64,000 nt of DNA from an uncultured bacterium (GCA_902772905.1 CACYCL010000142.1:15105-79104); one strand, 5' to 3'. Shown: positions 14,422 through 42,436, numbered from the stretch's first letter. Numbers and translations: made by a program. Notes: generated by a model from the sequence alone, not told the origin.

Positions 14422-14481
14422 GTAGGTTCTCCTCTTAAAGTTCATTCCAAGGTTCTTTGTGGGTTTCACGTTCAATGCTCC

Positions 14482-20900: not shown

Positions 20901-23615
20901 CCTTATCTTGTAGCATCCGGCATTGGCGTACCTGGTGTCGGCGTTTACAACGTCGAAGTAGATCGTTCCCACGCCGTTCGTGTAAAGGGGCGAGAATATC
21001 ACCGCGCCTTCTACGTTGCGCATAAGCATGGTGCCCTGCTCGGTCAGCCCCGCCGCCGCAGACTCGGCCGATATCGCCTTCGCTGTTGACGAATTAGGTA
21101 GATAGCAACGTACGCTTCCCGGAATACCTCCGGCTAAGTACGTGTTGCCTATGACGACATCTTCCAGCGTCCACAACGCATTGGCATTGCCGCTTGAATC
21201 TGTGGTGTAAAGCACGTGGTTTGCATACGGCTTGACATACGGGAAACTTCCTATGTTTACACTGTGATCCACAGAATGTACCCAGTACGTAGAATGCACT
21301 GAGCTGTCCGTCTGCCAGTACGACTGGTCGGTTACGGAATGGCCGCCGGGGGCGGAGTCGTCGTTCACTAGCAGAACGCGCCCGTTCTGCGTAAGCCCGC
21401 CCGCGTCGCCCGCGAGATCTTCGTAGGTGATGTGGCCAACTATGAAGAAGTCGATGCCGTACTCAAGCGTTTCGTATATACCTTCCGGGTCGTGCGGACC
21501 AAACACCGCGCTGTACGAGCCGCCGGCGGTCGGGATGCCGCTCATTACCGCGCCCGTGTTGAGGTTCGTAACGTAGAGAAGCGCCGATGTGCCTTCTTTG
21601 ACCGCGCCCACGCTCTGAACCGCTCCTATCTCGGAATCGGTTGAATCCCACTTTGTCTTCGTGAGCGACGGGTAGGCCGTCCAGTAGTTCACGCGCTTGC
21701 CGTCGCGAACAACCAGGTCGAAGGTGCAGCTCGGCTGTGCGCCGGAAGGCTCGTCTACGGAGGCGGAGCGGCTTGGCGGCTCCTTGCCGTCGCGAACATA
21801 CCAGAAGAGGCGAATCACCTGCGAGCTGGTTGTCATGGTCGGCAGCTTTACCCAAATGACCGATTCGCCCGAAGTGTTCCAGTAGTCAACCTTGTAGTCG
21901 AGGAGAGTGCCGTCCGCATCGGTTATGGCGAGGTCTTCGCCAGTCTTGCCGGCGCGCGAGTAGAGGAAGCCGACAGGCGCATCCTCGGCAACCTTCAGCG
22001 CGTAGGAGTAGTCGGTGGCGGCGGCAGAAGCGCCCGCTATCGTTATCTCCACGTAGTCGCGGTAGACGTCGCCCGGACCGTTCAGAATCTTGAAGCTCGT
22101 AATTGCCTCGGCGCCGTTGTAGCTGTCGGTAGCCTCGATGTAGGCGCGCAGGTAGTAGGTGCCAACCTCCGTAGGCTTTTCGGCCGCCCACGGCCCAGTG
22201 GCAGATTCGCCATACCAGTACGTAGGCGCAACTGCAATGGAGACGTCGCAGCCCGGATTCGGCGTAGCCTCGTCGGGAGTGCCGTAGATCCAGTTGCGAA
22301 TGGAGAGGTTCGTTATCTTGGGCGTGGCCTTGCTGATCGTGAGCGTAACCGTAACCTCCTCATTGCCGCCCGTGGACCACTCAAAGCCGTCAACGAGCGT
22401 GACCTTGGCCTTGTAGGTTCCGAAATTAGTGCCAGCAACGCTTTCAACCACCTGACCGTATGTAGCCGAACCCTCGGTCAAGTCGGTAATCACATACGCC
22501 GCGTTCGCGGGAACCAACACATGCTCCAAGCCGTCGAAAGCAATCGCCTGAGAGACCGGCTTTGCGATTTCGCCAACGGCTATAACGCTAATTCTGATGT
22601 ACAGAACGCCCTGATAGCCGCTACCACCGCGTGTAGTCGCGCGCGCTGGAAGCGCACCACAGCCGCCGCCGCCACCGCCGTAGAATGTAGCGTCAGTTGC
22701 CGCTACGTTAAGGCCGTAACCGCCGTTGCCGCCGCCACCCTTGCCGCCAGCGATGGGGTCGTGCGACGCAGTGAACGACTTGTCGCAAAAGCCGCCCGCG
22801 CCGCCACCTGCATAGTAGATTTCTTCGCCAGTGATATCGCTTGCGCGACCGTCGCCGCCTACAGGGTTGGTCGTGGAAGCCGCAGCACCTGCAGCGCCTG
22901 CACCGCCGCCGCCGCCGCCGTAAAGACCACGGTTACCAGCACCGCCTGCATAACCCTGACCATTGGTTGCTGCGCCGCCTGGATGACTCTCACTTACCGT
23001 TGTACCTGAACGATAAGCTGAACCGCCGCCTCCGCTGCCACCGTCAAGACCATCGCCTTCACCACCGCCACCGCCTCCGCCGACCGCCGTGATCAGCGCC
23101 GTTTCACCAATGGAAAGCGTTGTGTTGCCGCCAGACGAGCCAGTGTATCGACCACGCGTTGCACTATGCAACTGCGACGACGCTCCACCTGCGCCACCCG
23201 AACCAACAGTAACAGAATACGTGGCAGAATCAAAAACACTAGTCGTCTCTACCATGCCACCTGCGCCGCCACCTGCGCCAGCACCATAATACGTTGTCAT
23301 CGCAGTGGAAAGAGTGCATATGCCTCCTCCGCCACCTCCGCCGCCGACCGCGAGAACTCGAGCCTTGGTCTTCGAGCCTTCGGGAAGCACAAACGAGCCT
23401 TCGCCGGTGAACTTGAGGAGCAGCTCGGTGCCGTTGAGCCACGTTACATCTGCCGCGCCGTAGTACTGAACTTCGCCGCCAGTCACCGTGGCGCTGCCAT
23501 CAAGAGCCTTTGCATCGCGTACGAGCGATGCCATAAGAGAAAGCACGACAAGAGCGCGCGCCCATAGCGCCGCCCCGCTCCTTTTCTCGCGTTTCTGGAA
23601 GCGATTACGCGTCAT
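14928..23615 (-). CDS. Giant secreted glycine-rich protein (about 2895 aa)
   Basis: One uninterrupted ORF. I moved the start to the ATG at 23615 (MTRNRFQKREKRSGAALWARALVVLSLMASLV, signal-peptide-like) with an AAGGGAG RBS. The N-terminal 350 aa carry poly-Gly and GGxGG tracts. The stop is 18 nt from the lipoprotein gene start. Confidence 0.75.
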   Translation of the reverse strand: MTRNRFQKREKRSGAALWARALVVLSLMASLVRDAKALDGSATVTGGEVQYYGAADVTWLNGTELLLKFTGEGSFVLPEGSKTKARVLAVGGGGGGGGICTLSTAMTTYYGAGAGGGAGGMVETTSVFDSATYSVTVGSGGAGGASSQLHSATRGRYTGSSGGNTTLSIGETALITAVGGGGGGGEGDGLDGGSGGGGSAYRSGTTVSESHPGGAATNGQGYAGGAGNRGLYGGGGGGAGAAGAAASTTNPVGGDGRASDITGEEIYYAGGGAGGFCDKSFTASHDPIAGGKGGGGNGGYGLNVAATDATFYGGGGGGCGALPARATTRGGSGYQGVLYIRISVIAVGEIAKPVSQAIAFDGLEHVLVPANAAYVITDLTEGSATYGQVVESVAGTNFGTYKAKVTLVDGFEWSTGGNEEVTVTLTISKATPKITNLSIRNWIYGTPDEATPNPGCDVSIAVAPTYWYGESATGPWAAEKPTEVGTYYLRAYIEATDSYNGAEAITSFKILNGPGDVYRDYVEITIAGASAAATDYSYALKVAEDAPVGFLYSRAGKTGEDLAITDADGTLLDYKVDYWNTSGESVIWVKLPTMTTSSQVIRLFWYVRDGKEPPSRSASVDEPSGAQPSCTFDLVVRDGKRVNYWTAYPSLTKTKWDSTDSEIGAVQSVGAVKEGTSALLYVTNLNTGAVMSGIPTAGGSYSAVFGPHDPEGIYETLEYGIDFFIVGHITYEDLAGDAGGLTQNGRVLLVNDDSAPGGHSVTDQSYWQTDSSVHSTYWVHSVDHSVNIGSFPYVKPYANHVLYTTDSSGNANALWTLEDVVIGNTYLAGGIPGSVRCYLPNSSTAKAISAESAAAGLTEQGTMLMRNVEGAVIFSPLYTNGVGTIYFDVVNADTRYANAGCYKIRVEVSVDGGTNYNAYAMKPFKRDNTAAFAPDQTDATELTLEITNGGTADNFYRVAVPVDNGGNVRFRIVRTAQIPNQTWTADEYGFIVVDNILVSYPKSTASLEPYGSFNNKLTGRQVRGWGGAMSVPFPKAGAKGVYARAKALVDTNVNAHVAVDMPIAWAQMNYRWRYLNQQTNEWQTINLRPSAGFTSIQPIDIPAVVGDIEFWYDYVVQVPAFKYYDYSGLGLDLNGADGSALYTEEVTASTNRQISVTGYTSLPSGGTDWFFRLRRGESDWEGFTLYVKESEDGEEKAYDMSLSANHIWRGFCPTRTAIDGGIYIRIAGNNRQEAGNTEYDLNTVRYSLAENARDLPATGVLAASDNDDGWAWHTVPCDAKSGQIMVQIQDDTLAYTVVHADYQDFNGWTDANKTDGKGIFVGTSSDTNSVNMSGTTAEAVTHESHFESWNISVPTNQYWQEAFYATKAELDGGSWPLYQPFGAAISPNTAFDVGPGQWVNGFYRDNNTGMALQMEGKGKGYIQLVDFTGAPRGLESVSFKARIAQDISFGDFSYFRTDATSLSTYTFMTAAAFDINGRRNFAGNASLSLVAHYTTGVGCYELRVEQENASINTAGVVSPGTTFRLSLYRWLYDDEQGEIVPTRLGTATHSNGNNMFNTTSEGGSYARLFISVDTSVDGQTRVVGGVARDSVARSSFFNSASYREVMYRDTSAERLTYGTYGLLSANCPARFMQPSYSASAVTYQASSSQNGFQQGTYTITPISTSARVLCREDLAAGKWAINKSRMEAVNTGDFNSYGINAKTPSTTVDVYTAPAGTTKWALLKSQEVSGFGSSSSSGATTTIPLYSLDPCSVRLQAGGGFKTARVDVTLDDIEFTQWRGESYDDENGDQLGVFDDLVYGSPTNIVFTQGWVRETVNSAGEKGKAVLLSAKRSYADVASSIRSPRMVGDGDKGLGLGQLGFTYENAQSNAVLLVQIATNGVPLSGFQSLTKTAEGSWTTFTNINFAAMSAAERASGTVRVYFGLHGVRGAMRIMVDPATVAAVEDVTDPTAFGEVTITGVMFRDEPVLDAHSWWGWNLRTTDDGALVSIDDNASDPLKNGLAFALNNSIVDDIRTDGSADEYKKKYPLLQTPTFATNMVNEVSFLARLYDPKAGTARVTLYGATYGDLSEESMWAKLTSWDITNTTYEAYAKRFPAGSAYKAFRLAVTGVDGVTEPMADEEPLVPAQRVLIDEVLVMEGIVASVSFRNVGAFRTGLEETTAVTNVPSAAQQPLVGEEWGVQCEVYASQLADEIDLSSARVRLWWYEQPAPWGFDKWRDLPDAKNAWLMEASDSNLVFRSGYFGASAAVMPAQKSMMPVQYMLEVIYRANGQPQTNWLSSAEWENPPWYRPIDYNAQYGNGSFSAYTLLDTVAPGWAWINEANVFGVYDDNYNNSDKPLQFVEVAAPSDASLSGWTLRFLDAKMSGSDPVRLTGVVTNDVAEFGMNGLPATKTELKGIDAESKMVFHVIGSPNAKGSLDASDGRLDGTWTVANATDSVMNGEIQSYYPLAVQLVRPSGVVESEIVVLGTNEWSYVSSFNPEYAAAMLSAQERGGDFIYVGADEGGVPAGNAWSRSVGVFAGNGSAAIQWNNTQLMTPGRKNEGQAITGEPPKARGGALMIYSIIQGDNLAQSFGSETNTAGSVTVVYRKGSEEGTNITYRAGRWHEIGTVTVNGMYATPVPTGNDREWTLSVGAATSNDITVVASAKVDSSLAERYGVGEDSRYRNAIVNWLVRGTDAYGNEWHNKDATELGLADKAEANGTVTTNMTLTEMYWFDIDPTWNDHDIRLCAGWSGSESPRPKSGSNDLTSRVYMQITNTAAGGPGWAPYILQGVELLENSWEYAKIESDLLWTNATFKVKGLLGVNGLSVDSAEERNWIPLRWFVFTPTSFDADFTSVVEILDPFSTESPGYSARWYEWAQTHGRPSSLFFKWDVSDRSMPTEAEIMKTANPCRPEE

Positions 23616-23671
23616 CCGCTCCCTTCTCAACTTTTCTTTTCGTTCTCTTTTTTCTTCGTTTCATTGCAAGG

Positions 23672-29722: not shown

Positions 29723-30880
29723 TTAAACGCCAAGCAATTTGCGGAACGGAATGATTGCCGAAAAATACCCGTCAGCCGCAACAACCGGGGACAGAGTTCC
29801 AAAATATACAAGAGACACAAATGCAGACATTCCACAAGGGCGCTTGACCGACGCGACCTTGCCGCTCATCTCGTCAATGATGCTTCTTCCGATTTCTTTC
29901 TTGCGCTTGACTTCAACAAAGCAAAGAGCCTTTCTCGTCTGGATAAGCAAATCGACCTGACATCCCTTTCGTCCACGGGGAGAATTCGACCCTCTGCGCA
30001 AATACGGAGCAGCCGAGGTAATCACAGAGCCTTTCAAATGCAAATGCGGAACAAGCTCATGGTAGTTGTTGACGACCAGGTTTTCAAAGGCAAGTCCCAT
30101 TACGGCATCCATGTTCTCCAGCGCATCAAGGCCGGCGAATTCATATTCGTCGCGATCGATCACGGCCTTGACTGGCTCGATGAACTTCAGATAGAAACGG
30201 CAGTAGTTGTCGCTCATACGATATCTGTTTTCTCGCAGCTCCTCGCCGGTTTCCGGGTTCTTTCCCCTGTCTGACATGACAAGACCAGCTTCTGCCAGAC
30301 GCTCCATGGCATCGCTAACCCTCCCACCCTTCCCGATCTTAAGTTGCCTTGCCACCTCAACCGCTGTGCGAGGACCATCCACAAGACAGCGCAGAACCTT
30401 GGCCGTGAAATCCTGTTGCCTTGTTATGACATCATTAAACATTTCGTCGAAGTCATTCCTCAATACGCCGTCATGGGAAAATGCCATGCGGCGTATGTTT
30501 TCGCCGGCGGAAAGTCTTGGGTTCACTTCTTCCAGATAACGAGGAACACCTCCCGTGACCGACAAAACGTCCACAATTTCCTTAAGGTCGATGCGGTCGA
30601 CTTCGCGTCCCCAGAATTTCACGCACTCCTTAAGCGGCAGTTCGCGGACAACCAGGTCGCATGATCGTCTGCCGACAAATGCTGCACTATCGACAATATT
30701 CTCCTTGATCCAGCTCGAAACGCTTCCGCACAATACAAGTATCAGCCTATCGTGTTTCTTCCACATGTTGTCCCATGCAATCTTGATGGAATCCGCGAAA
30801 AGCTCGTCATAGCGGCCCATCCAAGATATCTCATCCAGCAGAACAACTGTCCACACATCGTCTTTTATTTCATGATCCAA
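29723..30880 (-). pseudogene. 5'-truncated paralog of the DUF234-type AAA ATPase; it lacks the first roughly 100 aa including the Walker A motif
   Basis: The translation begins at the Walker B region (VVLLDEISWM), aligning to residue about 110 of the full-length paralog at 31350..32795. The only available start is TTG and there is no SD. An in-frame stop lies two codons upstream. The break coincides with the 31-bp hairpin repeats. Confidence 0.5.
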
Positions 30881-30958
30881 TCGCTTAAAAGCCGAAAGCC
30901 AGCAGTCCGGAAGCGAAGACTCTGCTTCTGTCGCGTGGAGACATTATACACTATTTGT

Positions 30959-31042
30959 CCCCTATTTTGCAATAGGCAGATTAGGGGATAAAAAAGATGC
31001 CAGGAAAATTTAGCCCCTATTTTGCAATATGCAGATTAGGGG
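30959..31042. repeat. Two copies of a 29-31-bp hairpin element (cccctattttgcaatakgcagattagggg) spaced 55 bp apart
   Basis: Each has a CCCCTA...TAGGGG stem. On the minus strand each carries TTGCAA, and the proximal copy lies 18 nt upstream of TATAAT (gtgTATAATgtc), a promoter-like arrangement. They sit directly upstream of the truncated ATPase fragment. Confidence 0.6.
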
Positions 31043-31080
31043 ATATTATTTGATAGGCTTGAGCACAGGGTTTTCAGACC

Positions 31081-31125
31081 ACGGAAGAGCACTGAAACCG
31101 CCGCTTGGCGGGCACGGAAATGGTT
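31081..31125. repeat. Copy 1 of a 45-bp direct repeat (acggaagaRcactgaaRccgccgcttggcgggcacggaaatggtt)
   Basis: Near-identical to copy 2 at 32921..32965. It contains a CCGCC-gctt-GGCGG hairpin. ORF-track entries 31029..31316 and 32842..33192 share GRALKPPLGGHGNG only because both read through this repeat. Confidence 0.6.
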
Positions 31126-31326
31126 GCGAATGGGAGGCCGCAGGCGCAAAGAAACCCTGTGGCCGCCATATTCCACACAAAACAAAAGTGACGGGAAACA
31201 CTTCTCGTCACTTAAGGCGAGGACAATCCCCCCGCATCCCGATGACTCCAGCCTTACAGCCTTCATCAGTGCGTATTCTACCAAATCTGATGCCAGTAAG
31301 CAAGAGGGGGGGCTGAAAATGCAAAA

Positions 31327-31352
31327 CAGCGGTGTCGCCGCAGGCGACTCTA
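31327..31352 (-). terminator. Copy C of the conserved hairpin element, abutting the stop codon of the full-length ATPase gene
   Basis: A perfect GTCGCC-GCA-GGCGAC hairpin at 31334..31348, followed on the minus strand by ACCGCUGUUUUGCAUUUUC. Confidence 0.45.
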
Positions 31353-32795
31353 CCCAAACAGCTCATCAAGCGAAACTACAGACTGCACACGGCTCGAATA
31401 TTGATTCTGCAAAAGGCCGCTGGTTGTCACAAGTGTAAGATGAAGCGCTTTCTTAATGCCAGTCACGCCGGCGAATGTTGCGGTTTTCCTGTCGAGATCC
31501 TCGTCATACGCCTTGTCTATGGCGAATGCGTTTGCCGAATACTTCATCTCGCAGATGTTGACGACGTTGTCTGCCCTGTCAAGAACAAGATCTATCTGAA
31601 CCCCCTTCGGGTATGTCTCATTGCCCCTGAAAACCCATCCATATGCCTCGACATGCACACTGCCAACGCCCAGCGCCCTGCGAATCTGCGGCAGATGCTG
31701 CAGACACAGCCGCTCGAACGCAAGGCCGCGCCAGACCGCCTGCGCCGGCGATGCTATCGTCACCGACCAGAAATGCTCGTCGGTCGGCGGCGTATCGAGA
31801 AATCTGAAATGAAACAGGGTGAAGTTGTCAATGAGCTGGTAGACAGTGTTCTTCTTCTTGGCTCCGTACGACCGATAGCTTCTTATGAAACCGCTGGCCT
31901 CCAATGTCTCAAGCGTCTCGGAAAGCCTGCCTGTCGCTTCTATGCCCAGCACATCCAGCAACTCGATCCGGCTCATGCCGGCTTTCTTTCTGCCAAGCGC
32001 CTCCACGACGTTCTTGTATGACGATGCATTGCCGAAAAGAGAGGCGTAAAGATCGTTGAACTCTCCTCGCAGGGGCGCGTCGATGGCAAAGCAGATGCGG
32101 TCGAGATTCTGCGCCAGGCTCATTCCACGCGCAAGATAACGCCAGTAGTAAGGAATGCCGCCAAGCGCCATATAACATTCGGCGATGTCCTTTCTGCTCA
32201 TGCTGAGGCCACGTTCTACAGCCAATTCCTCGCACTCTCCGAGAGTAAACGGCTTAAGGTAGATTCGCGCCGTGACGCGATTGTGCAGACCTCCACGATT
32301 GCGGAAAAGGTTCTTGACCATCCAGGCGGCCGCCGAGCCGCAGACAATCAGCATTACATCCTTTCTTGCCGAAGCCCATTCGTTCCAGAAAGCCTGAAGC
32401 GCCGTCAGAAAATCTGACTTGGCAGTGTCCATCCAAGGAAGTTCATCTATGAAAACAACCTTCCGGCGCAGGGAGCTTCTTGAAATGATCTCCCTTAGCG
32501 AAGCAAAGGCGTCGAACCAGTTCTTAGGCACGGCCTTGGCAAGCCCGAATGTCGCCAACGATGACCTGAAATGTGAAAGCTGCTGCCTTTTGGTGGCGTT
32601 TGGCAAACCAGTATGATGAAAAGCGAAACGATCCGCAAATGTTTCGCGCACTAGAAATGTCTTTCCCACGCGTCGACGACCGTAGACGGCAACAAACTCC
32701 GACTCGTTTGAATTGAACAGACGAGTCAATTCAGTTATTTCATTTTTTCGCCCAACCATATCAGGTATTCCTTTTTTGTGGCCGAATGATATCAA
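31350..32795 (-). CDS. AAA+ ATPase of the archaeal-ATPase/DUF234 family (481 aa)
   Basis: Walker A is VAVYGRRRVGKTFLV and Walker B is VVFIDELPWMD; the C-terminus is DUF234-like. A promoter-like TTGACT-17-TATCAT lies upstream on the minus strand. Confidence 0.7.
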   Translation of the reverse strand: MISFGHKKGIPDMVGRKNEITELTRLFNSNESEFVAVYGRRRVGKTFLVRETFADRFAFHHTGLPNATKRQQLSHFRSSLATFGLAKAVPKNWFDAFASLREIISRSSLRRKVVFIDELPWMDTAKSDFLTALQAFWNEWASARKDVMLIVCGSAAAWMVKNLFRNRGGLHNRVTARIYLKPFTLGECEELAVERGLSMSRKDIAECYMALGGIPYYWRYLARGMSLAQNLDRICFAIDAPLRGEFNDLYASLFGNASSYKNVVEALGRKKAGMSRIELLDVLGIEATGRLSETLETLEASGFIRSYRSYGAKKKNTVYQLIDNFTLFHFRFLDTPPTDEHFWSVTIASPAQAVWRGLAFERLCLQHLPQIRRALGVGSVHVEAYGWVFRGNETYPKGVQIDLVLDRADNVVNICEMKYSANAFAIDKAYDEDLDRKTATFAGVTGIKKALHLTLVTTSGLLQNQYSSRVQSVVSLDELFG

Positions 32796-32965: not shown

Positions 32966-33249
32966 ATATAATGACCGCGCGCGCGTATATATTGGCGTCG
33001 ACTTTGCCCTTTGGGCCAAAAAACTCGTCAGAAAGGCCGAAAAATATTCAATGGATTGAAACGCGAAAGTGCAGCCTTGCACTCGCAAAAGTGCATGGTT
33101 GCACTCGGCAACTTGCATCGGATGCACTCGCAAAAGTGCAAGGTAGCACTTCGCGCAGTCAATGGTTGCACTTTCGCGCATCCATCCATTGACTCGAAAA
33201 GCCCCATATTGAGGCCCTCTATCACCCCTTCACATAGGCGAGAGCGGCA

Positions 33250-33579
33250 TGAACGCACTGGGTTCAGTCTGCACCCACTATGTATTGGATAGAAATCTTA
33301 GACGCCTTAAAGCCTAATATCTACTTCGCAATTTAATGTACGATCACATGATATCCTTATTATACCCATACCTAAGTTACTAAGCTGTTCATAACTGTTA
33401 AATAACTGTAGACAATTATCGATACTTTCTTACCAATTAAATATTTGTTCTAATTCTAATTTCATATTAATGTGAAAATAATGATTTTTATACACGTTTA
33501 AGAGTTTTTTATAGATCGTATAATTAATAACTTTTTTCTGTTCACAATATAGTTGATAATTTGATATAATACGTAGCAA
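33250..33579. other. Very AT-rich intergenic region at the gene-orientation switch; candidate oriC / DNA-unwinding element, also holding the mnmG promoter
   Basis: Everything to the left is on the minus strand and mnmG-dnaA-dnaN and onward are on the plus strand. The region is about 330 bp of AT-rich sequence with DnaA-box-like 9-mers (GTTGATAAT at 33552, TTATACACG at 33489). The TTCACA-18-TATAAT promoter at 33541-33570 precedes mnmG. Confidence 0.4.
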
Positions 33580-35505
33580 ATGAGCAACACAGTTTTTTAC
33601 GATTTGATTGTGGTCGGCGGTGGCCATGCTGGAAGTGAAGCGGCTTTGGCGGCTGCACGAATGGGTGTATCTACCCTTCTCATCACCTCGCGCATTGATG
33701 CCATTGCCAGAATGCCCTGCAACCCTTCAATTGGTGGTCTTGCAAAGAGTCATCTGGTATACGAACTTGATGCACTCGGCGGCGAGATGGGAAAGAACGC
33801 CGATGCGACTGCCCTTCAATCAAAGACACTCAACAAAAGCCGCGGACCAGCCGTATGGGCAACTCGCTGTCAATGCGCCAAGGAAGAATACACACGTCGG
33901 ATGCAGTCTGTTGTCCTAAGCCAAGATAACATAACTGCAATCGAAGATGCAGCCATTGATCTCATAGTTGTTGACTCAAACAACAAGTCATCATCAGATA
34001 GCGGACAAACAAACGCACAATGCACAAATGAGAAAACCAGTCAAGCGCACTTTTCTGCAAATGTCAAATCAGCACAGCAGCTGACAAGCAGCATTGAACA
34101 CAACTATAAAGTCATAGGAATAAAGACATCAAACCACGGTGACATTAATTGCAAGGCAGTTGTAATAACTTCCGGTACAGCTCTCAATGGTTGCATATGG
34201 ATAGGAAAAACATCAGAGGAAAGTGCCGGAGATGGACGACCAGCCGTAAATCAACTCTCAACTTGTCTTGCAAGGCTTGGTTTTGATTTAATCCGACTCA
34301 AAACGGGTACACCACCACGACTAAAAGCAGATACGTGTGACTTTTCAAAATGCGTACGTCAGGATGGAGAACTTCCGCCGCCATTGTTCCACGTGGAACA
34401 ATTCAAATACACCTCAGAATTGTTCCACGTGGAACAATTGCCTTATTTTCCATGCTGGCTGACTCACACAACACTAAAAACACATGAAATCATACGTGAA
34501 AACTTGCAAAACTCGGCACTGTATGGCGGTGCAATAGAGGGCGTAGGTGTTCGATACTGTCCATCAATAGAAGACAAGATTGTAAGATTCAAGGATGCAA
34601 CGCAACACCATGTAATGCTTGAACCAGAAGATTCTGCCGGCAAAGTAATCTATCCAAACGGGTTGAGCTGTTCACTGCCTAAAGATATTCAAGAAGAAAT
34701 GGTGCATTCAGTTCCAGGACTGGAATCGGCTGAATTTCTTGCATATGCATACGCAATCGAGTATGATGGAATAGACTCGCGTGAACTAAAGCACAGTCTT
34801 GAGTCAAAGAGATACAGTGGGCTTTTCTTTGCAGGACAGATTAATGGAACTACTGGATACGAAGAAGCCGCAGCTCAAGGAATAATGGCTGGAATAAATG
34901 CGGCATTTTACGTCCGTAAAGAAGAACCTCTTGTGCTAAGCAGACAAGATGCATACATCGGGGTTATGATAGATGATCTTGTGACAAAGGGCACTGATGA
35001 GCCATATCGCATGTTCACCAGCAGGGCAGAACGAAGACTCATCCTAAGACAAGACAATGCACGTTATCGATTGCTGTCTGCCGCCCGTCGAGTGGGCATA
35101 ATTTCAAAGGAAACACTTTATCAGCGAGAAAAAGAAATAGAGATTCTTAACTATTTTGCAAGTCACGATAAAAATGCAAGTTCAAATGCCAACAACAATT
35201 CAATAGCCGCAAATCAAATATATGATGGTCTTACAGACCAGATTAAAAAAGAGATAACAATTATGCGTCATTATGCACCATATATCGATCAGGAGTTAAA
35301 AGCTGCAGAACGCGCAAAAAAAGACGAAGACATAAAGATACCGGCATGGCTGAACTATGACAAGTGCCTTGCAGTGAGATTTGAAAGTCGTGAGAAATTG
35401 AAGCGGCACCGTCCTGAAACCTTGGCGCAAGCTTCAAGAATACCAGGTGTCAATCCAGCGGACATAGCAGTTCTGGCAGTCATAATAAAGAAGGGACACA
35501 TCTAG
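33580..35505 (+). CDS. mnmG: tRNA uridine 5-carboxymethylaminomethyl modification enzyme MnmG (GidA), with a low-complexity insertion
   Basis: [22 protein letters not shown] motif, [24 protein letters not shown] and [11 protein letters not shown]. About 45 aa of S/N/Q-rich insertion and a duplicated LFHVEQ segment are present relative to canonical MnmG. Confidence 0.9.
34383..34439. repeat. Two copies of a perfect 20-22-bp palindrome (AATTGTTCCACGTGGAACAATT) 35 bp apart, in-frame inside mnmG
   Basis: attgttccacgtggaacaat lies at 34383-34402 and aattgttccacgtggaacaatt at 34418-34439. They encode the duplicated LFHVEQ peptides. Confidence 0.8.
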
Positions 35506-35514
35506 TTGTCTAAT

Positions 35515-35539
35515 GTTATCAACATTTTCTGTTGATAAC
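35515..35539. promoter_or_regulatory. Perfect inverted repeat GTTATCAACA-ttttc-TGTTGATAAC (two DnaA-box-like 9-mers) about 100 nt upstream of dnaA; likely a DnaA autoregulatory site
   Basis: TTATCAACA differs from the E. coli DnaA box TTATCCACA at one position. The same TGTTGATA core recurs in the 40344-40445 cluster. An extended -10-like TGGTATATT follows at about 35586. Confidence 0.5.
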
Positions 35540-35637
35540 CTGAATACATAAGTTAATTAGTTTTTTAACATAAGCCGCACATTTTATGGTATATTATTGG
35601 GCGAAACGTCACACTAGACAACAAGATACTTTAAACA

Positions 35638-37035
35638 ATGAACGAATCAGCAGAAAATGCGGCTAGGATGAAGTGGGAAAGGGCAAAGGCCATATACCTC
35701 TCTACGCTGCAATCGGAAGACGAGAAGAGCCAGGTAGAGCGCTATCTGTCGATGATTGTTTCAGTCGAGCAAAAGGGAAGCGCGTTCGTTGTAATCACTT
35801 CGAGTGCATTCTCCGCGGAGTTTTTGAAGGCAAACTATTCAGACAGGCTGAAGAAGTGCCTTGAACTTGTCATGCCTGACGAGAAGGTCGAACTGGAGTT
35901 CAAGTTCAGGGAGATTCCACTGCCTTCGATCATGTCGCATATTGTCGAGCCGAGAAAATCGCAGAAGATATCTACGTTCGTGTCGACAATGCCTCTCAAC
36001 GACGAATACACATTCGACGAATTCGTAAGAGGCCCTTCGAACAGTTTCGCTCTTGCCGCTGCGCAGGCCGTAGTGGCAAATCCAGGCAAGGGAGGCTACA
36101 ATCCTCTTTTCATACATGGCGGAACCGGGCTGGGCAAGACGCACCTGATGCAGGCGATAGGCAACGAGATCAAGCGAAAGGATCCATCTCTTGCTGTTTG
36201 CTACCTCACCGCAGAGGAATACCTGAACGAATACGTCAACTACATGAAGGACAGCAACGTTCCAGGATTCAGGGCGAAGTACAGGTCAGTCGACGTGCTT
36301 CTGCTCGACGACGTGCAGTTCTTCCAGAAGGGCAAGCAGATACAGGAAGAGTTCTTCAACACGTTCAACGCGCTAAAGGACAAGCGAAAGCAGATCGTAA
36401 TGACATCTGACGTGGCTCCGAAGAACCTGCCTGCAATAGAGGAAAGGCTCATATCGCGGTTCGAGGGAGGCATGCTACAGGAAATTGAAACTCCCAGCTA
36501 TGAAACGCGCCTTGCAATTCTGAGGAAGAAGCTCGAAGGTCTCGAAGTCAACGTACCGGACTATGCCCTTGAGTTCATAGCCGACAGGATAAAGAGCCAT
36601 GTGAGGGCAATGGAAGGCGCGCTTGGAAAGGTAAGCGTGTATCTTTCGGCATATCCAGGCTCTACGCTGAGCAACGAAATTCTGGAACACCTGCTTGGAG
36701 ACTTCATACAGAAAGAGCAGATGATGAGGAAGCTCAACATAGAGGAAGTAAAAGTAGCGGTTGCAAAGAAGTACTCCATAACGATGGAACAGATGATGTC
36801 GAAGGAGAGGACACAGTCGGTAGTCACTCCGCGCCAGCTTGCAATGTACATAGCGCGGAAGTTCACCACAAAGAGCCTTCCGGAGATAGCGAAGATGTTC
36901 GACAAGACGCATGCCACCATCATACACGGCGTGAGAAACATAGAAAGGCATCTGGACGTGGAGCCTGAACTAAAGGCGAGCCTTGCAGAGATTCTTGCTG
37001 AATTCGGATACAAGCTCTCTGACAAGATGGACTAG
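35638..37035 (+). CDS. dnaA: Chromosomal replication initiator protein DnaA
   Basis: AAA+ core with LFIHGGTGLGKTHLMQAIGNEI and LLDDVQFF, plus a C-terminal DNA-binding domain (RQLAMYIARKFT...IAKMF..HATIIHGVRNIE). Confidence 0.95.
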   Translation: MNESAENAARMKWERAKAIYLSTLQSEDEKSQVERYLSMIVSVEQKGSAFVVITSSAFSAEFLKANYSDRLKKCLELVMPDEKVELEFKFREIPLPSIMSHIVEPRKSQKISTFVSTMPLNDEYTFDEFVRGPSNSFALAAAQAVVANPGKGGYNPLFIHGGTGLGKTHLMQAIGNEIKRKDPSLAVCYLTAEEYLNEYVNYMKDSNVPGFRAKYRSVDVLLLDDVQFFQKGKQIQEEFFNTFNALKDKRKQIVMTSDVAPKNLPAIEERLISRFEGGMLQEIETPSYETRLAILRKKLEGLEVNVPDYALEFIADRIKSHVRAMEGALGKVSVYLSAYPGSTLSNEILEHLLGDFIQKEQMMRKLNIEEVKVAVAKKYSITMEQMMSKERTQSVVTPRQLAMYIARKFTTKSLPEIAKMFDKTHATIIHGVRNIERHLDVEPELKASLAEILAEFGYKLSDKMD

Positions 37036-37322
37036 AGAAGCTGTTGAGAACTTGATCAGAGAATGGTGAAAAGTGGTGCAGGTTATCGACAGCGGTGCTT
37101 CGAACCGGATGGCTTTGAACATGTCTCAAATGGCAACCAAGAGGAAATCAACAGTTGAACTCATGCAAAACCCCAACAAACACTGGGTCAAAACGACTTG
37201 TCAACATTGTCTACAGTGTATAATACTATAAAAAATACACTTCATCTTAATAACAGTATTTGATACAATTCACAATCAAGGCTGTAGAAGAAGACTGCGG
37301 CCAGCAAACGTAAGGAGACAGC

Positions 37323-38420
37323 ATGATGAAATTCAAGATAGTAAGGTCGAGGTTTCTTGAGGGACTGAAGTCCGTGCAGAACATTGTAGTTGGCAAGGGC
37401 TCTCTGCCAATACTGCAAAATGTTCTCATGGAGGCGAACGGCAAGGAGCTTAGGATGACCACCACTGATCTTGACATATCCATTCGCTCTATATGCGAGT
37501 GCGAAGTCATTGAACAGGGTAACTCAACGCTTCCCGTAAAGCTCCTGTTCAATGCCGTCGCCAAGGTGGCCGAGGGGGAGATAGAGGTTTCGATAGATGC
37601 GCACGAGCGCGCCGAGATCAACGCAGGAAACGCGAAGTTCAAGCTTGCGGGAATGCCGGAGTCGGAGTTTCCGCGCCTCCCTCAGGACGAGGACGCGTTC
37701 GCGTACACCATTCCCCAGACGACGCTCAAGGAAATGCTTCGCAAGGTTTCTTATGCAGCCAGCCAGGACGACACGAGGCGCACTCTGAAGGGCGTTCTCA
37801 TGAGCTTCAAAGACGAAAAGCTCACCATGGTAGCCACCGACGGACGCCGCCTTGCGCTTGTAGAGAACGAGAACGAGTTTCCAAAGGACTCCGAGAGGGA
37901 CATTGTGCTTCCCTCAAAGGCGGTGTCGGAGCTTCAGCGCTCGCTTGGAGGTGAAGGTGATGTCTCGCTTCTCGTGCAGAAGTCTCAGATATGCTTCAAG
38001 CTCGGCGGCATAATAATATACTCCAAGTTGATGGACGACGTCTACCCGAACTACCGCCAGGTCATACCTAGGGAGACAGCCGAGCAGATCGAGGTGGACC
38101 GCCAGCTGCTTCTTGACGCTCTTGACCGCGTGAGCGTAATGACCATAGACGAAGCTCATTCAACGAAGCTCATATTTGAAAGCGGAAAGCTCACCGTTAC
38201 TTCCGCTGCGTCTGACATAGGGGAGGCAAAGGATGTCGTGCCCATCAAGTACGCAGGCGAGAAGATAGAGATAATGTTCAATCCGACCTACGTGATGGAC
38301 GCTCTGAAGGCCATCGACGACGACATGGTTACAATACACATAAACGACGGTCATTCGCCTGCAGTGATAAAGTGCTCGATACCGTTCCTGTATGTGCTGA
38401 TGCCTCTCCGGATAAACTGA
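37323..38420 (+). CDS. dnaN: DNA polymerase III beta sliding clamp
   Basis: 365 aa directly downstream of dnaA, with the typical three-domain beta-clamp sequence (MKFKI.R..L...L..VQNIV......PILQNVL.EA......LRMTTTDLDISI). Confidence 0.95.
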   Translation: MMKFKIVRSRFLEGLKSVQNIVVGKGSLPILQNVLMEANGKELRMTTTDLDISIRSICECEVIEQGNSTLPVKLLFNAVAKVAEGEIEVSIDAHERAEINAGNAKFKLAGMPESEFPRLPQDEDAFAYTIPQTTLKEMLRKVSYAASQDDTRRTLKGVLMSFKDEKLTMVATDGRRLALVENENEFPKDSERDIVLPSKAVSELQRSLGGEGDVSLLVQKSQICFKLGGIIIYSKLMDDVYPNYRQVIPRETAEQIEVDRQLLLDALDRVSVMTIDEAHSTKLIFESGKLTVTSAASDIGEAKDVVPIKYAGEKIEIMFNPTYVMDALKAIDDDMVTIHINDGHSPAVIKCSIPFLYVLMPLRIN

Positions 38421-38464
38421 TTAAAAGACTGCGACTGAGAAGTGAAAAGGTCAAAGGGTATACC

Positions 38465-39709
38465 ATGAAGATCTGGACCGACAAGAACTATCCAATCATC
38501 ATTTCCTGTGCGAAGCAGCTTTCGCGCTGGACAGAGGCAGAAGTAATTGAGATGGGCTACAAGCCCATTGAAGTAACGGAGAACACGGTAGTTGTAAGAG
38601 GTGACATGCGCGATGTCATGAGGCTCAATCTGTGGCTCAGGACTGCACATCGCGTACTTGTTCCCCTGCTTAGGACGACATGCAGAAACATACGCGAGCT
38701 GTACGAGTCTGTCCTGTCGATAGACTGGGAGAACCTTCTTGACGCCGATGGATATTTCTCTGTTTCGTCCATAGTTCACAACTACACCATACGCGACACC
38801 AGGCTTCCCTCGCTTTACACCAAGGACGCCATAGCCGATCGAATGAGGGAGAAATGCCAGCGCAGGCCTGATTCCGGAGGGGCGAACTTCGGAGCGGCGG
38901 TTTTCGTATACTGGGAACGCAACGAAGTAATAATATACCTTGATACATCGGGCGAGCCGCTTTCAAAACGCGGATACCGGCGCATTCCGGGGTCTGCGCC
39001 CCTTCAGGAGACTTTGGCAGCCGCATGCATCATGGCCTTGAGGTGGGATCCGTCTACTCCGTTTGTGTCGCCGATGTGCGGCAGCGGTACGCCTGCGATA
39101 GAAGCAGTAATGATGGCAATGAACAAGGCTCCCGGTTCACTTAAGGGGCATTTCGCGTTTCAGTCCATAAAGGGATATAGCAGGTTCATACCTGGAGAGA
39201 CGTCGTCGCTTGTTTCCTCGCGTCACAGGGCCGGTGCATCGCCGGAGCAGATATGGAAGGAAATGGTGCGTGACGCAAAGTCAAAGGAACGCACCGTCGG
39301 ACTGCCTAAAATAGTTGCGACCGACATTTCGCCGGATGCCATTGAGAACGCCCTCACAAATTCCATCGCCGCAGGTGTTGCGCAGCACATTGAGTTCGCA
39401 GCGTGTGACTTTGGCGACACCAAGGTTCCGGAATCAGAGTCAACGCCGAAAGGAGTAGTGTTCTTCAATCCCGAGTATGGCATACGTCTTGGAGATCCTG
39501 TTGAGCTTGAGCCAATATACGAGCGCATAGGCACATTCATGAATGAAAAGTGCCGCGGCTATACAGGTGGTCTAATAACGGGAAATCCCGATCTTGCCGC
39601 CAAGGTCAATCTCTATTACAAAAACCGCGTTCCTTTCTTCAACGGGCCGATAGACTGCAGGCTCTTTGTATACGAGGGATGCGAACTGAAAGGACAGAAC
39701 GTCAAATGA
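38465..39709 (+). CDS. THUMP-domain class I SAM-dependent RNA methyltransferase (RlmL / RlmKL N-terminal-module-like)
   Basis: The start is the ATG at 38465 (MKIWTDKNYPII) with an AAGGG RBS. SAM-binding motifs include DPMCGSGT and the FFNPEYG catalytic motif. The ORF-track start at 38372 overlaps dnaN and was rejected. Confidence 0.75.
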   Translation: MKIWTDKNYPIIISCAKQLSRWTEAEVIEMGYKPIEVTENTVVVRGDMRDVMRLNLWLRTAHRVLVPLLRTTCRNIRELYESVLSIDWENLLDADGYFSVSSIVHNYTIRDTRLPSLYTKDAIADRMREKCQRRPDSGGANFGAAVFVYWERNEVIIYLDTSGEPLSKRGYRRIPGSAPLQETLAAACIMALRWDPSTPFVSPMCGSGTPAIEAVMMAMNKAPGSLKGHFAFQSIKGYSRFIPGETSSLVSSRHRAGASPEQIWKEMVRDAKSKERTVGLPKIVATDISPDAIENALTNSIAAGVAQHIEFAACDFGDTKVPESESTPKGVVFFNPEYGIRLGDPVELEPIYERIGTFMNEKCRGYTGGLITGNPDLAAKVNLYYKNRVPFFNGPIDCRLFVYEGCELKGQNVK

Positions 39710-40347
39710 ACTTTGAAGAATTTCTGAGGCCGGACGAACCGAATGAGAAGCCCGCAGCGGAAGAGACAGATGAAGAGGAAATTCAGCCTGAGGAGCTAGA
39801 TGTACAAAAGGCAGTCGTTGAGGCCTTGGCGGCCGAGAAGGTAGCCCGTGACGAGGAAATAGGAAAACTCAGGAAGGAAAATGAATTTCTTCACAAGAAA
39901 GTTGCGGAACTCACTGCGAAGAATGAATCGATGACTGCCAGCATAAGCAGCATGAAGAGTTCGCTTGACCAAGTCGGGGACGTGCTGGCCAGAAATTCAG
40001 AAAGCGAAACATCAAGCAAAATAGCGCTCATCGACAGAAACATCGAATGTGAAGACCGCTTTCCAGGCGAGACTCGCGACCATGTGCTTGAGGTGATACG
40101 CGAGGCCAGAGACAGGGACGAAGCCGAGGGAAGATGCCGTCGAGCCCAGCTTCTTGAAAGTGTACTCCTGGCAAACGAGCCCAACGGTACGCTTGCAAAA
40201 CGCCGTGCCGCGCTTGAAAAACTTTTCAATGAAAACGCCAACGTCATAAACGGAACAGTGATAGAAGAGCTTGCAAAGCTTGGAATTTCGCATAAAAAAG
40301 GCGAAGAGTATCTATTGGCATCAGAGATTATCAAGAGGAGTTATTGA
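39708..40347 (+). CDS. Hypothetical acidic coiled-coil protein (213 aa)
   Basis: The ATG at 39708 overlaps the upstream stop (ATGA). The protein is E/K-rich with heptad-like segments. The ORF-track N-terminal extension from 39550 overlaps the previous gene and was rejected. Confidence 0.55.
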
Positions 40348-40445
40348 TAAATATCAACATACATACTAACATATGTTGATATTGCTGTTAATAAGTTTAT
40401 AACTCTGTTGATACTGTTTATAACTTTGCCCTTGCAAGTTGATAA
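40344..40445. promoter_or_regulatory. Cluster of five DnaA-box-like 9-mers in a 100-bp AT-rich intergenic region
   Basis: TTGATAAAT/ATATCAACA form the palindrome ttgataaatatcaa at 40344-40357. TGTTGATAT is at 40375, TGTTGATAC at 40406 and GTTGATAAA at 40437. Confidence 0.45.
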
Positions 40446-40468
40446 AATAAAGTCCATAATACTCACCT

Positions 40469-40954
40469 GTGACGAACCTAGATCCAGAAATCTGCTATCA
40501 GATACGTGAAGCTCGCCGTGCGGCGAAGCTATCACAGATTGTAGTTGCGAACGATATTGGCTGCAAGCAGTCGGCGTTGTCGATGTTTGAGCAGGGAGAC
40601 GGAACAAAGCTTAGCGATGAGTCGATAAAGAAGCTTGCCGATAAATTCGGCATAGACATTTCACAAAAGAAGTCGTCTGTCCAGGCAACACCTGATGGAG
40701 CCGTTGTTGCACAGCGAACGGTATCAGAGAGCAAAGTTGGTTTCTGCCCAAACCCTCGCTGTCCGACGAACCATATATATGAGGTGGAGGGCAGAACCCT
40801 TTATCTTCCTGATCGTGCAGCGGCGGATCCAGTTGGAGGAAAGTTCTGCGCAATGTGCGGTGAAGTGCTTATGAAAGTATGCCCGAACTGTGGAGCGCAC
40901 GTGCACGACGGAGGATTCTGCTCGGTTTGCGGAGAGTCGTACATATCGGTGTAA
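40469..40954 (+). CDS. XRE-family HTH transcriptional regulator with a C-terminal Cys-rich zinc-ribbon
   Basis: HTH region is ICYQIREARRAAKLSQIVVANDIGCKQSALSMFEQG and the C-terminus has CPNPRCP...CAMCG...CPNCG...CSVCG. The GTG start and weak RBS leave the start uncertain. Confidence 0.6.
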   Translation: MTNLDPEICYQIREARRAAKLSQIVVANDIGCKQSALSMFEQGDGTKLSDESIKKLADKFGIDISQKKSSVQATPDGAVVAQRTVSESKVGFCPNPRCPTNHIYEVEGRTLYLPDRAAADPVGGKFCAMCGEVLMKVCPNCGAHVHDGGFCSVCGESYISV

Positions 40955-40990
40955 ACCAGACATAAATACACAACCAAGGAGGAGAAGCTG

Positions 40991-42436
40991 ATGGACAAGG
41001 TAAAAAGATACGCGGTATATCTATTGGTGATTGCCGGTTGCGGCGGGCTTCTCTTCGACTTTGGAGGAACAATAATCGGTCCGGCGCTGCCGTACATAGG
41101 TCCTGTAGAGGACAATCCCGGCAGCCTTGGTCTTTTCACGACCGGGCAGGTGTCGCATCTTTCGAGCGCCGTCGTGATGTGCGCCGCGATTGCCTGTCTT
41201 GCAGCCGGCTGGCTTACCGAAAAGATAGGGCGAAAGTTGATGATGCTCATTTCAGCCGCCATAGCCGCGCTCGCATGCCTTCCGATATGCCTAACGGGCG
41301 GGAACTACGCAATGTTCTTTGTCGGGCGGGCCATGCAGGGCGTGGCCGCCGGCTTTATAGGCGTTGTAGTTCCCATGTACCTCGCCGAATGCCTTGACGC
41401 GGACAGCCGCGGCAAGGGAGCCGGCATGTTCCAGCTTCTTGACTTCATAGGCATAACATTCTGCTCAATAGTTGGCCTGGCGGTAGTGCACTGCATAGGC
41501 GCGGCAGACGACACCACGGTTTCCGCCGCAAAGAAGGCGCTTGCCTGGAAGACTATTTTCTGGTCCAGCGCCGTTCCGGCCATTCTGTTTTTCCTTGGTG
41601 CGCTTGGCCTTAGAGAATCGCCGCGCTGGCTGTATCGCCGTGGTCGGAAAGAAGAGGCGCTTTCCGCGCTCGCGGCGAACAACGGCGAGGCGAAGGCGAA
41701 AGAGATATTGGAAGAGATGATCTCAAGTGACGAGGCAGAAGAAGCCGAGAAGGCCAGGAACGCATCAGCTACTGACACTCTCTTCCAGCGCAAGTACGTT
41801 CTGCCGTTCTGCATCTCCCTTGCAGTGCTGATATGCAATCAGGCGATAGGGTTCAACGCCATTCAGTACTTCTCGATCCCGATGTTCATGAAGGCAGGTC
41901 TTACCCAGTCTACGGCAAACGCGGCGAACTTCGTCGTGTGGCTTGTTCCCATTCCAGTGACAGTTGTTGCTCTGAGCCTTGTGGACAGGAGCGGGCGCAA
42001 GACCCTCCTGAAGCTCGGCACTCTCGGCATGGTTGCCGCGTTGGCAGGTGTTGCAACGGTGTTTCTGCTGCTTGAGAGGGGGGCGATGGCCGGCGGCCTC
42101 TTTGCCGGGTGGATGACTGTTGCCGGAATTGCGCTTTTTGTGGCGTCGTTTTCGATTGGTCCCGGAGTGGTGGTGTGGCTTGCGCTCTCCGAGCTGATGC
42201 CAAGCCGCATACGCGCAAACGGAATGTCGATAGCGCTGTTCGTAAACCAAATGGTTGCCTTTGCGATAGCCGATGCGTTTCTTCCATGGCAGAAGGCCTG
42301 CGGCTACGCAGTCGTGTTCTACTGCCTTGCCGGCTTTGCGTTTCTATACTTCCTGACGGCTGCGTTCCTTCTTCCGGAGACCAAGGGCAAGACGCTTGAG
42401 GAAATCGAGGCCTATTTTGCAGGCAAGCGGCGATGA
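40991..42436 (+). CDS. MFS transporter, sugar-porter family
   Basis: 481 aa with 12 predicted TM segments. Motifs GRKLMML and PETKGKTLEEIE are typical of sugar porters. A GGAGGAG RBS precedes the start. Confidence 0.8.
   Translation: MDKVKRYAVYLLVIAGCGGLLFDFGGTIIGPALPYIGPVEDNPGSLGLFTTGQVSHLSSAVVMCAAIACLAAGWLTEKIGRKLMMLISAAIAALACLPICLTGGNYAMFFVGRAMQGVAAGFIGVVVPMYLAECLDADSRGKGAGMFQLLDFIGITFCSIVGLAVVHCIGAADDTTVSAAKKALAWKTIFWSSAVPAILFFLGALGLRESPRWLYRRGRKEEALSALAANNGEAKAKEILEEMISSDEAEEAEKARNASATDTLFQRKYVLPFCISLAVLICNQAIGFNAIQYFSIPMFMKAGLTQSTANAANFVVWLVPIPVTVVALSLVDRSGRKTLLKLGTLGMVAALAGVATVFLLLERGAMAGGLFAGWMTVAGIALFVASFSIGPGVVVWLALSELMPSRIRANGMSIALFVNQMVAFAIADAFLPWQKACGYAVVFYCLAGFAFLYFLTAAFLLPETKGKTLEEIEAYFAGKRR

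Follow-up and report, generated by a model that had tools for sequence, protein, structure and literature searches.

The parS site is the DNA "centromere" that is gripped by ParB in the segregation of bacterial chromosomes. In other bacteria, the nucleation of ParB on parS, the CTP-dependent sliding of the ParB clamps, the segregation by ParA and the loading of SMC have all been established, and one of the parS sites of B. subtilis lies within the spo0J open reading frame (ORF). Chromosome segregation in PVC bacteria is, to our knowledge, essentially unstudied. The chromosomal sites follow a general consensus, TGTTNCACGTGNAACA (PMC4368675, PMC7022226). Several of the sites in P. aeruginosa are intragenic and have been mutated silently in order to spare the ORFs (PMC4368675), and multi-site arrays have been described in Myxococcus xanthus (22 sites), as well as in Streptomyces and Caulobacter, with the copy number depending on the lineage (PMC7022226).

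The DNA analyzed here (the window) is a stretch of 64 kb from a Verrucomicrobiota-like, unclassified bacterium with 71% identity to UBA3783. Within its mnmG gene, the segment 34383-34439, which reads cATTGTTCCACGTGGAACAATtcaaatacacctcagAATTGTTCCACGTGGAACAATTg, contains two perfect palindromes, one of 20 bp (34383-34402) and one of 22 bp (34418-34439). According to the palindrome scan, the entire window contains no perfect palindromes of at least 20 bp besides these two, and block-shuffled sequences give a mean of 0.17. The two copies have 21 bp in common as a direct repeat with a period of 36 bp (34383-34403 and 34419-34439), and both are translated in the same frame of mnmG, so that the peptide LFHVEQ is encoded twice. 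The palindrome scan and the ORF thereby bear out the preliminary description of this DNA, which had reported two perfect palindromes of 20-22 bp in frame in mnmG together with the duplicated peptide; the distance of 35 bp given there is approximately right for the repeat period, while the gap between the palindromes themselves amounts to 15 bp.

The two palindromes have the same 16-bp core, TGTTCCACGTGGAACA, which has exactly two exact matches in the window, and a search of the window for further copies, allowing for up to three mismatches to the 16-mer, returned none. The core is letter-for-letter identical to the experimentally studied parS2 and parS3 sites of P. aeruginosa and to the P. putida parS consensus, and both copies also fit the general chromosomal consensus (PMC4368675, PMC7022226). 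We consider it very probable that the ParABS partition system of this chromosome has its origin-proximal parS sites in these two palindromes; since ParB itself was not found in the window, we infer its presence and its binding to these sites. The host gene and the elements within it are as follows.

33580..35505, plus strand: mnmG (gidA), the host gene; intact ORF of 641 aa, with Pfam matches to GIDA (2.9e-144) and SAM_GIDA_C (3.4e-22).
34360..34446, plus strand: variable loop that hosts both putative parS sites; encodes MnmG residues 261-289, which lie between two conserved motifs, PPPxF and CWLTHT.
34385..34400, no strand assigned: parS-1 (probable), TGTTCCACGTGGAACA; extends to the 20-bp palindrome 34383-34402 and reads (L)FHVE(Q), residues 269-274; exact match, palindrome scan.
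34421..34436, no strand assigned: parS-2 (probable), the same 16-mer 36 bp downstream; extends to the 22-bp palindrome 34418-34439 and reads (L)FHVE(Q), residues 281-286; exact match, palindrome scan.

The pair is located 1.2 kb upstream of dnaA, in a region with the gene order mnmG-dnaA-dnaN. The minimum of the cumulative G-C skew falls at position 34514, about 100 bp from the parS sites, and the coding strand switches here from mostly minus upstream of mnmG to plus downstream. Downstream of mnmG, the following features were found.

35506..35637, no strand assigned: mnmG-dnaA spacer, candidate part of oriC; 132 bp, AT-rich (G+C 0.30), with DnaA-box-like 9-mers by consensus match.
35638..37035, plus strand: dnaA; Pfam Bac_DnaA (3e-62) and Bac_DnaA_C (5.8e-23).
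37323..38420, plus strand: dnaN; all three Pfam DNA_pol3_beta domains matched.

In the mnmG-dnaA spacer, the DnaA-box-like 9-mers TTATCAACA form an inverted pair (35516-35524 on the plus strand and 35530-35538 on the minus strand), which by consensus match are candidate elements of oriC. The gene order, the skew minimum, the strand switch and this spacer place the palindromes at the replication origin of the chromosome, the location to be expected of parS sites. A single DnaA-box-like TTATCGACA at 37083-37091, in the dnaA-dnaN spacer, is another candidate oriC element by the same kind of match. We also observed that within 33000-42000 the mnmG-dnaA-dnaN-rlmL block has a G+C content of 0.43-0.52 (0.44 in mnmG) versus 0.60-0.65 in the flanking DNA, and that in most relatives the G+C content of mnmG is likewise below the average of the locus (0.48 vs 0.59 in L083, 0.51 vs 0.58 in L001); the composition of the origin region and codon usage linked to expression are both possibilities as the cause of this low-G+C block.

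The identity of the host protein as MnmG is also evident from matches to MnmG entries in the PDB at E~1e-156 (2.5e-156 for 2ZXH), and the best Foldseek matches of its AlphaFold2 model are GidA/MnmG structures, with TM scores of 0.73-0.79. The parS sites align to a variable segment of Aquifex MnmG (2ZXH) located between the PPPxFSF and CW[IL]T[HY]T motifs; this segment comprises 28 aa here and 27 aa in the Aquifex protein, i.e. there is no net insertion. The modeling of the loop, which had been suggested in the preliminary description, gave pLDDT values below 50 at residues 261-275 and 277-289 and no secondary structure over 261-289, and the loop that hosts parS, a surface loop of variable length, is predicted to be a disordered coil. 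Because of this predicted disorder, the duplicated LFHVEQ would be tolerated, and we propose that the repeat is a passive by-product of the translation of a DNA signal. The S/N/Q-rich insertion pointed out earlier as lying further upstream is also real: this low-complexity segment at residues ~133-173 (33973-34098) has no counterpart in Aquifex MnmG, exhibits pLDDT values below 50 at residues 137-172, and varies freely in length among relatives, in which the whole segment spans 39-91 aa. No conserved or hidden DNA words were found in this insertion among the relatives. Since it is as disordered as the parS loop and devoid of such words, it can serve as a negative control for that loop.

Comparison with the 120 closest MnmG proteins (65-98% identity) revealed the motif P[LM]FH[VM]E[QH] at the same place in all 120, with FHVE in 118 cases and with FHME, which corresponds to a parS site with one mismatch, in the other 2. 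The parS 16-mer can be translated as FHVE[QH], CSTWN or VPRGT depending on the frame, and each of the three readings occurs. In 118 of the 120 proteins, the loop contains at least one perfect peptide encoded by parS (one to seven copies each), and 112 of them carry two to seven copies; altogether there are 271 perfect parS-derived peptides, including 214 instances of FHVE[QH], 18 of CSTWN and 39 of VPRGT. In these 120 relatives, the residues that adjoin the peptides also agree with those predicted from the DNA word, as listed below.

Residue before FHVE: predicted codon NTG (L/M/V), 216/216.
Residue after FHVE: predicted codon CAN (H/Q), 214/216.
Residue after CSTWN: predicted codon ANN (N/K/T seen), 18/18.
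Residue before VPRGT: predicted codon compatible with NNT, 39/39.

At the DNA level, 15 PVC loci (320 kb in total) contain 41 parS sites; 40 of these are located in the mnmG loop, and the exception is found 52 bp upstream of the gene. Each of the 16 positions carries 1.5-2.0 bits of information over these 41 sites, compared to at most 1.1 bits in the flanks, and no synonymous codon variation was found among the copies. The mnmG gene of the window and that of a 98%-identical relative (L085) differ by 35 nucleotides, none of which falls in the 32 nt of parS, while three fall in the 20 nt of spacer and junction, one of them disrupting the 20-bp palindrome. Based on these differences, only the 16-bp core is constrained, and its extension to 20 and 22 bp is local to this genome. 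The comparisons indicate that selection acts on the parS DNA word and not on the peptide, with the DNA being conserved independently of the reading frame. The preliminary description had considered that orthologs might share the peptide in the absence of palindromic DNA, which would make the palindromes a coincidence of codon choice; the opposite was found, as the palindromic DNA is kept in other frames, where it encodes different peptides, and no relative was seen to retain LFHVEQ with synonymous, non-palindromic codons.

A genome scan collected mnmG loci from at least 80 species among the matches listed, mostly with distant MnmG genes. Among these matches, parS is found inside mnmG in all seven PVC loci (a Verrucomicrobiota MAG, Pontiella sulfatireligans, a second Verrucomicrobia MAG, a Victivallales MAG, UBA3783, a Verrucomicrobiales MAG and an Akkermansia MAG), and the syntenic metagenomic relative L001 raises the count to 8/8. 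The offset within mnmG is ~660-900 nt in six of the seven; in the Akkermansia MAG, parS is located instead at 1570 nt of mnmG, and the loop keeps the relic FRMEQ. On the other hand, parS occurs inside mnmG in none of the 73 non-PVC loci among the matches listed, which represent Firmicutes, Nitrospinota, Bacteroidota, Elusimicrobiota, Cloacimonadota and Ignavibacteria; in many of these, a parS site lies a few kb from mnmG, adjoining soj/spo0J.

The alignment of MnmG orthologs, proposed earlier as a way to evaluate the duplicated peptide, was extended to 360 relatives from three PVC lineages, almost all of which have the site at the orthologous position (118/120, 115/120 and 113/120, respectively). 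In the Pontiellaceae-type MnmG, at least one perfect copy is present in 115 of the 120 proteins, 71 of which have two copies, and the rest exhibit one-mismatch forms such as FHMEH. In the Verrucomicrobiales-type MnmG, xFHVEQ directly precedes [LM]PCWITYT in 113/120, and 85 of these 113 are perfect. As judged from the sequences compared, the mnmG-loop parS is common to Verrucomicrobiota, Kiritimatiellota and Lentisphaerota, in which the identity of MnmG falls to 44-46%.

Among the relatives, the number of sites within the loop varies, owing to tandem duplication. In L082 (10731-10862), a 58-bp unit is repeated three times, and since 58 is not a multiple of three, its perfect parS copies are read in three frames (1, 2 and 0). 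In L084 there are two copies at a distance of 28 bp, read in frames 1 and 2; L023 (10899-11423) has four copies in an MnmG of 820 aa; and L083 (10821-11442) has seven perfect copies, with spacings that alternate between ~84-87 and 120 bp, in an MnmG of 864 aa. Overall, the copies are spaced at anywhere from 28 to 377 bp, without any fixed phase, and the expansion of the loop takes MnmG from ~580 to 864 aa. The loops of several relatives (P0004, P0005, P0007-P0009, P0012-P0014 and P0016) display repeated NHVEHVEH and PTCSTCPTW between the full sites, which, on the evidence of the protein sequences alone, look like translated parS half-sites or partial copies (CACGTGGAACACGTGGAA; TGTTCCACGTGCCC...).

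Neither parA nor parB was detected in the 64-kb window or in the 10 kb beyond its left end, as represented by the relative L089, and in the PVC relatives motif scans and tblastn searches with Spo0J/Soj queries likewise detected neither gene in the 10 kb to each side of mnmG. As a positive control, the same tblastn query found Spo0J in 32 of the 73 non-PVC loci listed, and worked in Firmicutes. For Akkermansia muciniphila, which belongs to Verrucomicrobiota, ParABS homologues have been reported (PMC10197239). As ParA and ParB were not found near mnmG in the PVC loci, the centromere sites of these bacteria appear to be uncoupled from the parAB genes.

As regards the other neighbors of mnmG, the genes downstream (dnaA, dnaN, rlmL and a gene with HTH_3 and DZR domains) are conserved among the relatives. 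The DNA directly upstream (29723-32795, minus strand) is non-syntenic with L001, L082, L083 and L084; it encodes two AAA/ATPase_2-type genes here, and DUF3800, PIN and FitA-like toxin-antitoxin genes or DUF711/ACT genes in the relatives. Further to the left, the window contains two giant ORFs on the minus strand (2005-14475, 4156 aa, and 14928-23630, 2900 aa), whose counterparts in the relatives have Pfam matches to TSP3_bac, Laminin_G_3 or Gly_rich_2. In L089 (11133-20994), the region beyond the left end of the window contains ackA (838-1968 in the window), pta and a SIS-domain gene, and then a cluster of Amuc_1102, PilM/FtsA-like, Amuc_1100-like and secretin genes. This cluster resembles the Amuc_1100 pilus-like locus of Akkermansia and is consistent with an organism of the Verrucomicrobiota type.

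The preliminary description had suggested, as one possible origin of the repeat, a palindromic, MITE-like mobile element that was inserted in frame in mnmG and tolerated. To give the two copies, such an element would then have been duplicated. With its palindromic ends and its direct repeat of 21 bp, the segment superficially resembles a miniature element, and the variable number of copies in the loops of relatives, attributable to tandem duplication, would also be in line with such an origin. However, we consider this scenario extremely improbable, as the window contains no dispersed copies at up to three mismatches, all but one of the 41 sites across 320 kb and 15 PVC loci reside in the mnmG loop, the orthologous position is kept in three PVC lineages at 44-46% protein identity, the loop is practically as long as in Aquifex (28 vs 27 aa), and conservation is confined to the 16 bp of parS, with unconserved flanks and without a target-site duplication. 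A functional role of the peptide itself, with LFHVEQ as a binding or regulatory motif of MnmG and the palindrome as an incidental choice of codons, has on its side that FHVE[QH] is the commonest reading among the parS-derived peptides of the close relatives (214/271) and that there is an overlap of the first copy with the ancestral PxF(S)F motif. We nonetheless give it almost no credence: the second copy is replaced in relatives by CSTWN or VPRGT, i.e. by the same DNA in other frames, the codons are identical in every copy over 41 sites, and the region is predicted to be disordered, with the equally disordered S/N/Q insertion showing no conserved words.

It could also be envisaged that the palindromes are an operator pair for another dimeric protein, such as a transcription factor that recognizes CACGTG or a ParB-like paralogue, which regulates mnmG and dnaA, or, as a variant of this idea, that a hairpin in the mRNA is the selected feature. 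ParB was not found nearby, which leaves room for a different protein, and in one report ParB is described as a repressor of promoters adjoining parS in P. aeruginosa (PMC5521831). In the mRNA of 34383-34439, moreover, copy 1 would pair with copy 2, because the copies are identical palindromes, and would form a stem of 22 perfect base pairs closed by a loop of 12 nt (-38.2 kcal/mol, z = -11.5). Yet the match to the chromosomal parS of distant phyla extends over all 16 positions, beyond the CACGTG core that the preliminary description had compared to a common arrangement of transcription factor sites, and the spacing of copies in the relatives (28-377 bp, without a fixed phase) is unlike that of an operator pair. 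An RNA structure, in turn, would tolerate compensatory changes, of which none occurs, and the Rfam scan revealed no known RNA families in 32.5-37.5 kb. We therefore regard regulation by another protein, or selection for the hairpin, as improbable. The earlier suggestion of an operator pair for a dimeric regulator was thus right insofar as the palindromes would be a pair of binding sites for a dimeric protein, but the protein would be ParB and the sites parS rather than a transcriptional operator. The hairpin was rejected as the selected feature, since a stem of this kind follows from the identity of the two palindromes. A transcript with two parS copies, whichever they are, would contain a duplex of at least 16 bp, and the very stable hairpin of the window may have an additional effect at the RNA level, for instance on the translation of mnmG or the stability of its mRNA.

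If the palindromes are parS sites, then by analogy to the systems characterized elsewhere a CTP-bound ParB dimer would recognize each 16-bp palindrome and close as a clamp. Such clamps would slide onto the adjoining mnmG, oriC, dnaA and dnaN to build the partition complex, which would be moved by ParA and on which SMC would be loaded.

The identification of the palindromes as probable parS sites adds to the annotation of the window the putative centromere of the chromosome and also, if dnaA and the minimum of the skew are taken into account, the origin of replication. It would also explain the odd variation in the length of MnmG in the PVC phyla, in which the enzyme seems to accept up to ~280 extra residues to carry more parS copies. 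The locus offers a clean example of a cis-acting DNA signal that apparently overrides selection at the protein level, with the same 16 nt kept in any frame. For practical purposes, FHVE[QH], CSTWN and VPRGT in the MnmG loop may serve to locate the origin and the centromere in genomes and MAGs of PVC bacteria, and a first ParB ChIP-seq or Hi-C experiment on such bacteria could be aimed precisely at the mnmG loop. It is tempting to speculate further that Verrucomicrobiota, Kiritimatiellota and Lentisphaerota have kept an origin-proximal centromere in one disordered loop of MnmG, perhaps since their common ancestor and perhaps as their sole such site, with one to at least seven copies generated by tandem duplication in any frame, and that this placement has a function instead of being a frozen accident; taken as a whole, we consider this proposal rather unlikely. 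If the placement were functional, transcription through parS, the RNA duplexes of at least 16 bp or the ParB clamps could couple the expression of mnmG and dnaA to the assembly of the partition complex.

Since intragenic parS sites are well known, the element in the window belongs to a known type, and the pattern in the mnmG loops of PVC bacteria does not imply a new mechanism. We found no description in the searchable literature of parS linked to mnmG/gidA, to the PVC phyla or to the peptides FHVEQ, CSTWN and VPRGT, although the supplementary tables of Livny et al. 2007 may list such sites. A PVC-wide cluster of one to seven parS copies in a single loop of MnmG, in any frame, appears to be undescribed in that literature. 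The closest counterparts are parS2 and parS3 of P. aeruginosa and the P. putida consensus, in which the 16-mer TGTTCCACGTGGAACA is identical and the sites are also origin-proximal. However, the Pseudomonas sites are spread across several kb and different genes, whereas here the two copies are 36 bp apart in one loop of one enzyme, and the PVC window also differs from Pseudomonas in that no parAB was found near parS. The parS of the B. subtilis type (TGTTNCACGTGAAACA), found near or within soj-spo0J of Firmicutes, follows the same consensus and likewise occupies a conserved spot near genes of the origin region; in the Firmicutes loci compared here, the sites lie ~2.6 and 5.3 kb downstream of the start of mnmG, adjoining soj/spo0J. 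There, however, the sites are hosted by the partition operon itself, whereas the PVC sites appear to be uncoupled from parAB and reside in mnmG beside dnaA. Finally, the arrays of Myxococcus, Streptomyces and Caulobacter resemble the PVC loop in comprising multiple origin-proximal copies, the number of which varies with the lineage, but they span many kb, with many genes or intergenic regions, while the PVC relatives pack up to seven perfect copies into one translated loop.
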